A DNA stretch of 64,000 nt, taken from NCBI RefSeq assembly GCF_056712565.1, contig NZ_CM160072.1, one strand, 5' to 3'. Under the pieces are notes generated by a model. It saw only the letters and a program-made list of their open reading frames with translations, made no database searches and was not told where the DNA came from. Both the position numbers and the translations under genes were made by a program. Numbering within the stretch: the stretch's first letter is position 1; every line of letters starts with the position of its first letter. Positions 42,558-47,029 of this stretch are shown here, piece by piece.

Positions 42558-43051
42558 TAAGCCCCCACGTAATTCCCTGACAGATACCACTCTTCACCCG
42601 ATGCAGCGCGCTTGCTGCTTTTCCGTAAGCACCGCTCACGACGCGCCAGAAAATTGTTTCGTTCTGGCTGGGAGTGGCTTTCACGGAATGCCGCCATCCA
42701 CACGGTTGCAGCACGACGGTATAAACCCCTGGACTCCAGTTCTTCAGCCTGGCGGGTCAGGCACAAAATCACCCGTGGATCGTTAGTGCCGACATAGAAA
42801 TTGCGCACAGGTCTGGTTTCTCGAACTGGTTGTGGTTCCGGTTCCTGCGCTCTCTCAGTCAGGCGCGGGAAATGTCTGCGTGTATCTCCTTCACAACGGT
42901 GAGCCACACGCCCACTCTGACGTAACTTGCTTGCTGACTGCAGAACGCGCTGTCGTGAGTAACCTGCAAAAGCATCCGCAATGTCACCGGAAGTACACCC
43001 CGGATGGGCTTCAATGAATTTCTGAACGTCATTTAACAGACTCATGATCAC
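42557..43051 (-). CDS. Putative PerC/ANR-like transcriptional regulator
   Basis: 164 aa; AEELESRGLYRRAATVWMAAF resembles the PerC-family signature as recalled; uncertain. Confidence 0.4.
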   Translation of the reverse strand: MIMSLLNDVQKFIEAHPGCTSGDIADAFAGYSRQRVLQSASKLRQSGRVAHRCEGDTRRHFPRLTERAQEPEPQPVRETRPVRNFYVGTNDPRVILCLTRQAEELESRGLYRRAATVWMAAFRESHSQPERNNFLARRERCLRKSSKRAASGEEWYLSGNYVGA

Positions 43052-43989
43052 CCCCTGAATCCTGCCGGGATCTGGCTGTAGTCCACGTTGTCGTAACTGG
43101 CTTTGAAGTACGGGTCCTCGCGTTTTTCGGTGTACGTACTTACGGACGGCGATAAGCGCAGGGAAAGCTCATCCCATTTTTCCCGCAGCTTCGACGGGCT
43201 GAGCACGTTACGGCACCAGAACGGATCGCGGCTGACGCGGCTGTACATCTCGCAGATTTGTTTGTGAGTACGACCATCCTGCACACACATCAGGCGAATT
43301 TCGTTTGCCCAGGCTGTCCAGTTCGGTTCTTTGGGACGAACCACCTCGCCGTCACATTCGGCAGCCTGCTCGTACAGGGCGATGATTTTTTTCCAGAGCC
43401 ACTGTGCGCAGGTCAAATCATCCTGCGTTCCCCACTGGCGCTTTTTAGGGCTGAATACAACAGCATCAGGATGGCGAGTTAAAAACTCCTGTTCAGCCGT
43501 CTGCGTGTCCGGTTGCGAAGCGTCCGGACGAGAAGTTTTTTTATCTGACGGATCATGTTTTGATTTTACTGACGGATCCCCGCCAGATTCTGACGGGTGA
43601 AAACCCGCTTTTTTGCCAGATTTCGACGCATCAAATTTTGACGGGGCAGATTTTGATGCGTCAGATTTTGACGGGTCAGAATCTGACAGTTGAGAAAATG
43701 CCGCTGCCTGAAGCTTCGCAACGTTAAGCTGATAAACATTCGACGCATTGCGGTTACCCTGGCGACGCGCCTTACGCGTTAACCAGCCTTCTGCTTCCAG
43801 CCGTGCGATAGCCGTTCTGACGGTACTCATCCCCGCGCCAATCTGGCGGGCAATGGTTTCAATTGATGGCCAGCACACACCTTCGTCATTACTGAAATCA
43901 GCCAGGCGGGCCATAATTGCCACGCTGGATAACTTCATGCCTGACGCAGCGCAACCATCCCATACATAGCCGGTTAATTTAGTGCTCAT
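43048..43989 (-). CDS. Replication initiation protein (O-like; N-terminal HTH, internal iteron-encoded repeat region)
   Basis: 313 aa; N-terminal winged-helix-like region; middle low-complexity SKSDASKSAPSKFDASKSGKK encoded by tandem DNA repeats. Confidence 0.6.
   Translation of the reverse strand: MSTKLTGYVWDGCAASGMKLSSVAIMARLADFSNDEGVCWPSIETIARQIGAGMSTVRTAIARLEAEGWLTRKARRQGNRNASNVYQLNVAKLQAAAFSQLSDSDPSKSDASKSAPSKFDASKSGKKAGFHPSESGGDPSVKSKHDPSDKKTSRPDASQPDTQTAEQEFLTRHPDAVVFSPKKRQWGTQDDLTCAQWLWKKIIALYEQAAECDGEVVRPKEPNWTAWANEIRLMCVQDGRTHKQICEMYSRVSRDPFWCRNVLSPSKLREKWDELSLRLSPSVSTYTEKREDPYFKASYDNVDYSQIPAGFRG
43541..43695. repeat. Iteron-like tandem repeats (~8 copies of ~15 bp, GAtTtTGACGgntCA) inside the replication gene; candidate origin
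   Basis: ttatctgacggatca / gattttactgacgga / gattctgacgggtga / gatttcgacgcatca / aattttgacggggca / gattttgatgcgtca / gattttgacgggtca / gaatctgacagttga. Confidence 0.55.
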
Positions 43990-44928: not shown

Positions 44929-45129
44929 CTAATCTTTCGGATAGATATCCGGTCTTAAGTCAGATTTCGTAATTGCACCTGACGTGCATTGCTCAAGTTT
45001 TTTAGCCAGCACAAAACTGGCTTTTTTATAGCCATTGAAAACCAGCCGTAAGTAGCCAGGTGTTGAGCCAACTTTTCCGGCCAACTCGCCCTGCTGTTCT
45101 TTGGTTAAAGAGTCCCAATACGCTTTCAT
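44929..45129 (-). CDS. Cro-like HTH repressor
   Basis: 66 aa, divergent from the CI gene across an operator-containing 90-bp region. Confidence 0.6.
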   Translation of the reverse strand: MKAYWDSLTKEQQGELAGKVGSTPGYLRLVFNGYKKASFVLAKKLEQCTSGAITKSDLRPDIYPKD

Positions 45130-45135
45130 ACAATG

Positions 45136-45202
45136 TGTACCTCAGGTGTACATATTACATGATTGAAATGAACCTTCAAGATACTTGTACCTTAACGGTA
45201 CA
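45136..45202. promoter_or_regulatory. OR-like operator region: two copies of TGTACC-N5-(G/T)GTACA between cro and cI
   Basis: tgtacctcaggtgtaca (45136-45152) and tgtaccttaacggtaca (45186-45202). Confidence 0.5.
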
Positions 45203-45219
45203 AGGGTTTTAATTTCGTT

Positions 45220-45894
45220 ATGAAAACAATCCATGACATCCGGCGGTCTAACGCCAGAAAACTGAGAGATGGTGTTGGCGGGAATTCTTCCTTTGCCACT
45301 ATGATTGATCGCGAGCCAACCCAGACCAGCAGGTTTATGGGAGATGGTGCTACTAAAAATATCGGTGACAGCATGGCACGACACATCGAAAAATGTTTCG
45401 ACCTGCCTGTCGGATGGCTCGATCAAGAACACCAGACAACGAACATCACAAAAAAACCTGATGTTTCAATCACTAATAAACAAATCACATTAGTCCCTGT
45501 CATATCATGGGTACAGGCCGGAGCATGGAAAGAAGTTGGATATTCTGAGGTTGATTTGAGCACAGCAGAAACGTATCCCTGCCCTGTACCCTGTGGGGAA
45601 ATGACTTATATCTTGCGGGTGATAGGTGATTCAATGATTGATGAGTACCGCCCGGGAGACATGATTTTTGTCGATCCTGAAGTACCTGCCTGCCACGGTG
45701 ACGACGTTATTGCATTGATGCACGATACAGGTGAAACCACCTTCAAAAGGTTGATAGAAGATGGGACACAGCGTTATCTCAAAGCGTTAAACCCAAACTG
45801 GCCTGAGCCTTACATTAAGATCAACGGTAATTGCTCTATAATTGGTACTGTGATTTTCTCAGGAAAACCAAGAAGATACAAAATCAAAGCCTAA
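45220..45894 (+). CDS. CI-like repressor (HTH + S24 LexA-like autopeptidase domain)
   Basis: 224 aa; C-terminal RVIGDSMIDEYRPGDMIFVDPE ... TFKRL gives Ser/Lys dyad. Confidence 0.8.
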   Translation: MKTIHDIRRSNARKLRDGVGGNSSFATMIDREPTQTSRFMGDGATKNIGDSMARHIEKCFDLPVGWLDQEHQTTNITKKPDVSITNKQITLVPVISWVQAGAWKEVGYSEVDLSTAETYPCPVPCGEMTYILRVIGDSMIDEYRPGDMIFVDPEVPACHGDDVIALMHDTGETTFKRLIEDGTQRYLKALNPNWPEPYIKINGNCSIIGTVIFSGKPRRYKIKA

Positions 45895-45905
45895 TCAATG
45901 TTTAT

Positions 45906-45930
45906 GAACCTGCTTCGGCAGGTTTTTTTA
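45906..45930 (+). terminator. Rho-independent terminator after cI
   Basis: aacctgcttcggcaggtt hairpin followed by TTTTTTT. Confidence 0.6.
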
Positions 45931-45933
45931 TAC

Positions 45934-45966
45934 TTGACAATGTACCTTTGGGATACATAATGTACC
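45934..45966 (+). promoter_or_regulatory. pL/OL-like promoter with overlapping operator
   Basis: TTGACA-N16-CATAAT overlapping tgtacctttgggataca (same consensus as OR sites) plus an extra tgtacc half-site. Confidence 0.4.
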
Positions 45967-46096
45967 CAAGAGAAACAACAAACAGGCAGGACGCCCACGA
46001 AGTAGCCGCCTGGGGCATATGAAGTCCAGGATGATTCGTTAGCAACAAAAAAGCGCCCTATAGGACGCTTCGCTCTTTAACAATCTGGATGACTTA

Positions 46097-46609
46097 TTAC
46101 TCAGATTTGAACTTTGGTTCTGGCAAAAGAGGAGGAGTTGAGTCCTCGAATCGTAGCCAGTGCTCCCAGATATCGTGGGATTGTAATTCCAGAAGACCAA
46201 TTTGACGTGATGCAACTGCAGTGCCAGCTATAGTTCCTCCTGCATAATCAACCTGGACGGACTTTGACGCTTTCTCAATTAATTCTGTCCAAGCTTCACT
46301 TTCCGCGTTAAAAGAAGCAGTTAATTCCTGCAGACGCTGTGGATCATCCTTGTTGTCTTGTTTCAAACGATTCAGGGCGGCCACCGAATACTTATTCTTA
46401 ACCCAACTAACCTGAGCTAACTGAACTCTCTGACAAGCGTCCATATCAGTAGTTGTTTCCTGAGGCATATCAAAGCAGGAAATAAAAAAAGTCTCAACAC
46501 CATCATTTAGACTACTGCTCGGCTGGTTCAAAGCATCAGAAGCATTGGATGCTATCGGTATTATCAGTGCTACCGACAGAATCAAACGTTTAACATAAAT
46601 CGCTCCCAT
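46097..46609 (-). CDS. Secreted hypothetical protein (signal peptide), moron
   Basis: 170 aa; N-terminal KRLILSVALIIPIASNA signal peptide; opposite strand to flanking early genes. Confidence 0.5.
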   Translation of the reverse strand: MGAIYVKRLILSVALIIPIASNASDALNQPSSSLNDGVETFFISCFDMPQETTTDMDACQRVQLAQVSWVKNKYSVAALNRLKQDNKDDPQRLQELTASFNAESEAWTELIEKASKSVQVDYAGGTIAGTAVASRQIGLLELQSHDIWEHWLRFEDSTPPLLPEPKFKSE

Positions 46610-46895
46610 TTAATTATCCCCTCTAAGAACAGAGTCATCCAGATTAGCCGAATCCTTGTTGTTGGGGAATAACCAGGCCCACCTCGCCTGATGTGGCTAA
46701 AAGCAGGCACATAACAGCTAAGTATTTTCAACCAGAGAGAATCCTTAGCGTTGTGGTGAATGCGGCTCAGCGCACGCGGGTTAAGGTTGAGGCTGACAGT
46801 CGACCTTCTGTGGATACCCACCCGCCTGGTGTGCAACCTTCGCCAGGCACCGGGAGGCACCCGGCACCACAACTTTATGCTGTGTGTAGTCCTGG

Positions 46896-47029
46896 CGGTA
46901 CCAGCTTGTACCCTTGCTTCCGGCTGGTACCGCTCTTTTTACAAAACAGAGAAGAGCATCACCGGACGACGGGCTCATAACCCAATCCACCCGGGCGGCT
47001 GCCACCGCAGGTGTTCTTCTCTGTTTTGT
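46896..47029 (+). promoter_or_regulatory. GC-rich structured leader with two long perfect inverted repeats upstream of the yfdP-like gene
   Basis: cggtaccagc(46896-46905)/gctggtaccg(46923-46932) and acaaaacagagaaga(46941-46955)/tcttctctgttttgt(47015-47029). Confidence 0.45.

Follow-up and report, generated by a model that had tools for sequence, protein, structure and literature searches.

The Immunity Region

A phage-type immunity region was analyzed in a 64-kb stretch of DNA (64,000 nucleotides of contig NZ_CM160072.1, assembly GCF_056712565.1; referred to below as the window). A cro-like gene and a cI repressor gene diverge from a gap of 90 bp (45130-45219), and cI is followed by a terminator, a pL-like promoter, a structured leader RNA and an accessory gene in antisense orientation (the moron). 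The genes and transcription signals at the core of the region are the following.

44929-45129, minus strand: cro-like open reading frame (ORF), 66 amino acids, YmfT/CroE type; PHROG 35, transcriptional repressor; RefSeq name ymfT
45152-45179, minus strand: putative pR; -35 TTGAAG (45179..45174), 16-bp spacer, -10 TAATAT (45157..45152); predicted start near 45145
45220-45894, plus strand: cI repressor gene, 224 amino acids, YmfK/CohE type; Peptidase_S24; RefSeq name ymfK
45906-45932, plus strand: cI intrinsic terminator, a hairpin (45906-45925) plus a T run; -11.6 kcal/mol, z = -4.3
45934-45961, plus strand: pL-like promoter TTGACA-N16-CATAAT, 11/12; predicted start near 45968

The description of this segment as a CI/Cro immunity region in an earlier, sequence-only reading is borne out by the proteins. 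CI matched Peptidase_S24 (PF00717, E = 1.5e-26), its C-terminal domain matched the solved structures of lambda CI (E = 2e-9), and the Ala100-Gly101 cleavage motif is present together with Ser138 and Lys176. The N-terminal domain of CI had no match in Pfam and presumably contains a helix-turn-helix, whereas Cro gave a weak match to YdaS_toxin/HTH_3. Neither the CI N-terminal domain nor Cro has a close relative of known structure; the best matches were 5d50 (E = 0.002) and 8co2 (E = 0.01). A cII-like gene of the CP76/YmfL family adjoins cro; as an equivalog of NF041471, for which the cut-off is 90 bits, it scored 167 bits.

From cro through cI to pL the DNA is 98%-99.5% identical to that of the Shigella phages SfV and SfIV and the Escherichia phages PhiR29/PhiR49, and the region is about 95% identical to Ayreon, 2H10, the Cdt-I phage and twelve Stx2c phages. 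The cryptic prophage e14 of E. coli K-12, to which the names ymfK and ymfT belong and whose sequence was inspected directly, has the same four operator-like sites (described below), the same pL and the same leader RNA. Parts of this layout are already marked in public records: the GenBank entry of SfV labels the cro/cI gap "putative operator region," that of Ayreon annotates the pL promoter, and both annotate the cI terminator.

Four Sites with a Common Half-Site Lie at the Early Promoters

The sequence-only reading had proposed three operator copies sharing the 17-bp motif TGTACC-N5-GGTACA. All three exist, but the count was too low: a fourth site and a weak, conserved fifth were added, giving two sites in the right (OR) and two in the left (OL) operator region, plus the weak one.

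45136-45152: predicted operator OR-a (site 1), TGTACCTCAGGTGTACA, one mismatch, from the motif scan
45169-45185: weak fifth site, TGAACCTTCAAGATACT, three mismatches; abuts site 2 and overlaps the pR -35 hexamer
45186-45202: predicted operator OR-b (site 2), TGTACCTTAACGGTACA, a perfect palindrome, from the motif scan
45941-45957: predicted operator OL-a (site 3), TGTACCTTTGGGATACA, one mismatch, from the motif scan
45961-45977: predicted operator OL-b (site 4), TGTACCCAAGAGAAACA, two mismatches, from the motif scan

The recurrence of the motif is not random. With at most one mismatch, three matches were found in the window against 0.14 expected; with at most two, six were found against 1.43 expected, a number reached in none of 100 shuffles, and five of these six fall inside 45136-45977. 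The relaxed core TGTAY-N7-RTACA picks out exactly sites 1-3 in the 64 kb, against an expectation of 0.18. One of the two-mismatch copies lies within cI (45585-45601, TGTACCCTGTGGGGAAA) and is kept in SfV and SfIV; it is coding sequence, has no right half-site and is most likely there by chance.

The arrangement of the sites follows that of the promoters. Sites 1 and 2 both lie within the 90-bp gap, as had been claimed, with their centers 50 bp apart. Site 3 fills the spacer of the pL-like promoter (-27 to -11), in agreement with the earlier description of a third copy overlapping a near-consensus promoter just after the cI terminator; the -35 hexamer of this promoter begins one base past the T run of the terminator, and the promoter is retained in all relatives compared. 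Site 4, centered 20 bp beyond site 3, begins on the last base of the pL -10 hexamer and covers -7 to +10. Site 1 stands in the same register at the predicted pR (about -7 to +10), and its spacer contains the Shine-Dalgarno sequence of cro. The putative pR did not appear in the output of the promoter scan because it scores 8/12. Its hexamers hold their position in Hafnia and Edwardsiella phages, reading TTGCAG-N16-CATAAT in Edwardsiella phage EPP-1. A lambda-like third OR site within the pR spacer was considered and rejected, since the sequence there, TTCATTTCAATCATGTA, is unlike the motif.

The spacer of site 1 (45142-45146) reads TCAGG in the window. Its first three bases are TCA in none of 85 related loci and TCC in almost all of them, including K-12 and SfIV; the change turns the Shine-Dalgarno sequence on the cro strand from GGAGG into TGAGG.

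The Half-Sites Are Selectively Conserved

To follow the sites through close relatives, 80 viral-contig loci (with CI 100% identical over the matched residues) were combined with close phage relatives and the window, which yielded 30 distinct OR and 32 distinct OL haplotypes. Over sites 1-4, 16 of the 20 spacer positions vary, compared with 6 of the 48 half-site positions (Fisher p = 1.5e-7). The outer TGTA/TACA is almost never altered, and the inner two positions of the right arm accept G/T and G/A; TGTACC-N5-(G/T)(G/A)TACA is a fair consensus. The weak fifth site is nearly invariant across 30 haplotypes and is retained in Hafnia and Edwardsiella; because it contains the pR -35 hexamer, its conservation need not mean repressor binding.

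The same pattern extends to more distant phages. Hafnia phage yong2 (72% DNA identity; N-terminal 75 residues of CI 77% identical) and Edwardsiella phage EPP-1 (69% DNA identity; CI N-terminal domain 65% identical) retain sites 1-3 at equal positions, with the 50-bp spacing of sites 1 and 2 and with site 3 in the pL spacer, whereas the central 5 bp of all three sites differ. Site 1 is equally placed in these two phages and in SfV, SfIV, Ayreon, cdtI and Stx2c, its spacer variable and its outer TGTA/TACA invariant. At site 2 the half-sites are retained around spacers as different as TTAAC, CTATC, TTATC, AACGC and AATTT. Site 4 is retained in four lineages, even where unrelated sequence lies just downstream, with its variation concentrated in the spacer; in EPP-1 it is a closer match to the motif (TGTACTTATAAGATACA).

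The proteins show a corresponding constancy. The candidate recognition segment of CI, REPTQTSRF, and the segment GYLRLVF-G-KKA of Cro are retained in both yong2 and EPP-1, and the motif accompanies the CI/Cro pair through three genera. Phages with unrelated repressors have different palindromes at the equivalent position of pL. Across relatives the repeats thus behave as operators, and the candidate operator specificity that had been suggested for this CI/Cro pair stands.

The pL region of HK022 (locus L004, 1320-1380, minus strand) contains palindromes of the form TGTAC-N5-GTAC(A/T), in which the half-site is similar and the arms are 2 bp closer. The N-terminal domain of HK022 CI looks unrelated by eye, and the likeness is possibly a coincidence.

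A Model for the Switch

Clustering, position and conservation make it very probable that the 17-bp sites are the operators of the e14/SfV-type CI (YmfK/CohE) and Cro (YmfT/CroE). In the scheme that follows, the assignment of sites to CI or to Cro, the cooperativity and the placing of pR and, above all, of the cI promoter are inferred. In a lysogen, CI dimers would occupy the adjacent OL-a and OL-b and cover the spacer and start site of the strong pL promoter; because 20 bp amounts to about two helical turns, cooperative binding at this pair is plausible. CI on OR-a would cover the edge of the pR -10 hexamer and the start site and overlap the ribosome-binding site of cro, so that with OL-a, OL-b and OR-a filled both early operons would be silent. 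Site 2 overlaps the core of either candidate cI promoter (see below), and its occupancy should therefore lower cI transcription; OR-b would then be the site of negative autoregulation by CI and also a target of Cro, which would turn off cI from there after induction. DNA damage, acting through RecA, would lead to self-cleavage of CI at Ala100-Gly101 by way of Ser138/Lys176 and so release pL and pR.

The transcription signals beyond cI would keep the neighboring units apart. The cI terminator would halt maintenance transcription one base ahead of the pL -35 hexamer, and repression of pL would not stop the moron, on the opposite strand, from being expressed; the terminator of the moron would keep the moron transcript from entering pL and cI in antisense. 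After induction, transcription from pL would pass antisense through the moron.

Independent support for the operator reading comes from K-12. For e14, PMC8249747 gives YmfK as the SOS-sensitive repressor. A "YmfT iModulon," activated by oxidative stress (PMC10602906), contains ymfJ, ymfH, xisE and intE, the genes ymfT, ymfL, ymfM, ymfN and later ones, and the SOS genes sulA and recN, without ymfK (PMC12133099). The first four of these genes form the predicted pL operon and the series from ymfT onward the pR operon.

Several observations weigh against this reading. The literature search returned no binding data for any of the sites, although older work on the SfV genome and on e14, which was outside reach, may hold operator predictions. 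OR has just two good sites, 50 bp apart, plus the weak one abutting site 2, where lambda has three contiguous sites; for this reason lambda-style cooperativity between OR1 and OR2 and OR2-dependent activation cannot be assumed. The promoter of cI is also elusive. No plus-strand match of at least 9/12 was found in the cro/cI gap; of the -10 candidates, the best hexamer, GATACT (45180-85), has been lost from Hafnia, and T(T/C)TAAT (45208-13), which lies 6-7 nt before the cI ATG in three genera, does not have the usual A at -11. Across the three genera no consistent Shine-Dalgarno sequence precedes the cI ATG, a hint that the cI mRNA may be leaderless like that of lambda. Lastly, conserved arms around a variable center are also what RNA hairpins would show.

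Two other explanations of the sites were weighed. One is that they are read by a single regulator, Cro for example, or by a host factor such as LexA, while CI acts elsewhere. The motif does have TGT...ACA in common with SOS boxes, but the LexA box is CTGT-N8-ACAG and in these sites TGT and ACA stand 11 bp apart, and their identity with LexA/SOS boxes was rejected on this spacing. In addition, the motif occurs nowhere else in the 64 kb, it tracks the CI/Cro pair over three genera, and around pL and pR there is no other repeated palindrome; this explanation is improbable. The other, that the palindromes are RNA or DNA hairpins (attenuators or terminators) with the arms as stems and the centers as loops, can draw on the gathering of variation in the central 5 bp and on site 2, which with its flanks scored as a terminator-like hairpin followed by GGTTTTAATT, but it is barely credible: the hexamer TGTAC(C) is reused at four or five places, which hairpins do not require, the arm changes GGTACA to TGTACA, TATACA or GATACA occur without compensation in the opposite arm, sites 1, 3 and 4 allow just four or five weak A-U-rich pairs, and sites 3 and 4 are for the most part placed before or at the point where transcription begins. 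The objection drawn from hairpins is weakened by the same two facts, the recurrence of one hexamer at all sites and the lack of compensatory arm changes.

A Conserved Structured Leader RNA at the Start of the Predicted pL Transcript

Close to its start, from +9 onward, the pL transcript would carry a conserved RNA element. Together with the features that follow it in the window, it is arranged as listed here.

45976-46042, plus strand: structured leader RNA, 67 nt, +9 to +75 of the predicted pL transcript; invariant core GGCAGGACGCCCACGAAGUAGC
46050-46071, minus strand: intrinsic terminator of the antisense moron, 9 pairs, about 85 nt downstream of pL
46071-46083, plus strand (pL sense): boxA-like sequence CGCTCTTTAACAA, directly after the moron terminator hairpin and about 100 nt past the pL start
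46097-46609, minus strand: antisense moron, an ORF of 170 amino acids; PHROG 7681 (unknown function), E = 1e-120

The leader is present, at 80%-100% identity over about 70 nt, in 51 phage records with different repressors. These include SfII, phiNP, ST64B, mEp237, mEp460, SPN3UB and SEN34, Yersinia YeP1-3, Pectobacterium ZF40, Pantoea AH07, and Klebsiella and Aeromonas phages. Annotation was inspected in six records, where the element begins roughly 100-400 bp past the repressor gene; in four the distance is about 100-120 bp. None of the phage records carries an RNA annotation at the match, and most annotate nothing there. An exact search with the 22-nt core retrieved at least 120 viral contigs, which pooled with the earlier loci gave 132 distinct sequences. 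Copies also lie at L216 1482-1550 and L217 1493-1560.

The structure became visible through covariation alone; the minimum free energy fold of the leader by itself is unremarkable (z = -0.41). Three helices are formed, P1 (45978-82/46035-39), P2 (45985-87/45993-95) and P3 (46009-13/46026-30). In an alignment of 29 diverse copies, two five-pair helices are 96% paired, compared with 20%-46% in frame-shifted controls, and compensatory changes were seen in nine of the ten pairs tested. P1 occurs as CGAA/UUCG, CACC/GGUG, CAUC/GAUG and CAAA/UUUG, and P3 as CCUGG/CCAGG, CUACC/GGUAG, CCCGA/UCGGG and CCGGU/ACCGG. RNAalifold returned this structure together with a short, invariant hairpin, GGC-AGGAC-GCC. 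It is almost certain that the structure exists and is under selection.

A covariance model (R1) was used for scoring, with the following results.

Window, 45976-46042: 85.8 bits
K-12 e14, 5' untranslated region of ymfJ (NC_000913.3 1202110-1202177, minus strand): 73 bits
T5-like Providencia phage PR1, terminal repeat: 69.9 bits
Aeromonas phage pAEv1818: 69.4 bits

The copy in PR1 has a promoter-like TTGCTT...TATACT upstream, a new P1 variant (GGAAC/GUUCC) and a different P2 loop. More generally, 77 of 131 distinct upstream contexts have a promoter scoring 9/12 or better whose end lies 8-39 nt (mostly 10-22) before P1; among control 70-mers the share is 2.4%. The leader is missing from the Ayreon/cdtI/Stx2c group and from the Hafnia and Edwardsiella relatives, which have other leaders.

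The RNA has apparently not been described before. No Rfam family matches it at E <= 1, the only hit in the vicinity being STnc100 at 46720-46942, and a full-text literature search for the core sequence gave no match, although older work on antiterminator RNAs, SfV and e14 was outside reach and may describe it. SfV, SfII and SfIV are reported to be without N (PMC3851460), and all three carry the leader. It is possible, if somewhat doubtful, that the leader represents a class of cis-acting RNA so far undescribed, which would let host RNA polymerase resist termination and would be put-like in function and structurally unrelated to put; an antitermination or anti-Rho role is our guess by analogy. 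Alternatively, the leader might stabilize the mRNA or control its translation, serve an unknown phage protein as a site, or sense a ligand.

A further explanation, that the promoter at 45934-45961 makes only a short RNA ending at the hairpin 46050-46071 and that this RNA acts in trans as a small RNA, would suit the compact, conserved structure of the leader and, in the moron cassette, the position of the hairpin 8 nt past it. It is nonetheless very unlikely. Read on the plus strand, the hairpin is weak and lacks a U tract, and in SfV, in K-12 e14 and in most other contexts the leader enters a sense-strand gene with no terminator between; moreover, the K-12 genes ymfJ-ymfH-xisE-intE are co-regulated with the pR operon.

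Ayreon (L002, 4062-4150), cdtI and Stx2c (L007, L008) combine the same CI, Cro and operators with a pL leader of another kind, which has a 7-bp hairpin (GCGUAUG-GCA-CAUGCGU). It contains CAUGCGUCG, which is also found in HK022 putL at positions 27-35, and it may be a true relative of put.

The Leader Is Followed by Interchangeable Cassettes

The 3' end of the leader (about 46043) is a mosaic boundary, beyond which unrelated cassettes follow, among them the LprI-like moron of the window, SfV orf33 and K-12 ymfJ. At least seven different cassettes were found at this place in loci with the same pL, most often the moron cassette (roughly 37 of about 85 loci). The arrangement that the sequence-only reading had called unusual is thus the norm in the e14/SfV immunity family. 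The unit of leader plus moron also occurs behind other immunity regions. The moron protein is weakly LprI-like (Pfam LprI, E = 0.006, below threshold) and, to judge from its N-terminus, looks secreted.

The hairpin between pL and the moron had been described as bidirectional, a claim that does not hold. Its minus-strand form, with about -14 kcal/mol and UUUUUUG behind it, qualifies as a proper terminator for the moron, whereas the plus-strand form has -7.2 kcal/mol and no U tract.

The boxA-like sequence contains an exact copy of GCTCTTTAACAA, the rrn-type boxA core, which has a single match in the window even with one mismatch allowed (0.30 expected). The sequence moves with the moron cassette at a constant offset and is absent from 90 of 114 downstream contexts of the leader. 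BoxA was accordingly rejected as a general partner of the leader, being confined to the moron cassette except in two independent cases, phage PR1 and locus L112; in PR1 a boxA-like CGCTCTTTAAAAA stands about 10 nt past the leader, independent of the moron cassette. No boxB-like hairpin or N gene was identified. The boxA-like sequence of the window may shield the untranslated antisense stretch from Rho.

Two Rfam matches elsewhere in the window were noted. STnc100 (RF02076) matched 46720-46942 on the plus strand with 45.4 bits, against a gathering score of 47, between the moron and the next genes of the pL operon; this region is conserved in SfV, and a 2026 preprint ties STnc100 to the PasD small RNAs of Stx phages. 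A match to mir-5880 at 43614-43688 (minus strand) is spurious; it arises from a run of repeats (TCTGAC..GTCAAAAT..), inverted as well as direct and imperfect, within the replication-protein gene 43048-43989; by analogy with the lambda O gene, these repeats are probably origin iterons.

Implications

The switch is an ordinary lambda-like one, and the leader RNA outweighs the operators in importance. The operators do have a wide bearing: a 1.8-kb query running from cro through the moron was matched in 2182 of 5426 complete E. coli genomes (about 40%), and the immunity region is found in K-12 e14, in serotype-converting Shigella phages and in Stx2c and Cdt-I toxin phages. As far as was found in the literature, the operators of the e14/SfV immunity type had no earlier experimental definition. 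A defined operator would allow a prediction of which e14/SfV-type prophages are mutually immune, would give the K-12 "YmfT iModulon" its likely true regulator (YmfK) together with a binding motif, and would provide orthogonal repressor/operator parts. If the leader modifies elongation, it would be a second RNA route to processive antitermination, and one testable in K-12. An antiterminator leader would also explain how N-less phages of the e14, SfV, ST64B and ZF40 types tolerate interchangeable morons, antisense genes and terminators after pL.

Comparison with Known Systems

Analogous to lambda, the window has divergent cI and cro genes, 17-bp partly symmetric operators over pR and pL, an S24-type CI and a terminator between cI and pL. 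Three features by which a lambdoid switch may be recognized were found: divergent repressor and cro genes across a short gap, a self-cleaving S24 repressor with an Ala-Gly site and a Ser/Lys dyad, and repeated, partly symmetric operators over both early promoters. In contrast to lambda, which has three sites in each operator region, there are two good ones here, with half-sites unrelated in sequence to those of lambda. Within OR the two good sites stand 50 bp apart and enclose only a weak one, and no pRM with an OR2-like activating site is demonstrable. Nor was an N gene identified. Relatives have been reported to be without N, cII and cIII (PMC3851460); the cII-like CP76/YmfL gene is nonetheless present in the window.

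The leader resembles the put RNAs of HK022 in its length of about 70 nt and in its place at the start of the early-left operon of N-less lambdoid phages (PMC9378689 for put), and its extreme conservation points to a conserved host partner, as with put. The structures are different: the leader is an outer helix around two hairpins, whereas put consists of two tandem stem-loops, and the leader does not have the -10-like NANNAT motif at +23 to +28. Its single copy also contrasts with the putL/putR pair of HK022, for in the 64 kb no second, putR-like copy was found, the next R1 hit (14.7 bits) being on the wrong strand. Thus the leader has the location expected of a put element, the 5' end of an early transcript in an N-less phage, but neither sequence nor structure aligned with HK022 putL, the put sequence used for comparison, and no early-right copy was found to pair with it. 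As a homologue of HK022 putL it was rejected, there being no meaningful BLAST match and no R1 match in the HK022 immunity region (putL numbering after PMC9378689). With respect to rrn boxA and lambda nut, CGCTCTTTAACAA of the window matches the boxA core but belongs to the moron cassette and not to the immunity region or the leader.

The closest systems are e14, SfV and SfIV, which are 98%-99% identical to the window over cro, cI and pL; K-12 shares the four sites, pL and the leader. Both marks of this group, near-identity of cI, cro and the regulatory DNA and a YmfL-family gene downstream of cro, were found, and by its sequence the module is the already catalogued e14/SfV immunity type (ymfK/ymfT/ymfL). 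Two differences set the window apart. The site-1 spacer TCAGG, which alters the cro Shine-Dalgarno sequence, is private to it, the others having TCCGG, and behind the leader comes the antisense LprI-like moron, a place taken by orf33 in SfV and by ymfJ in K-12.

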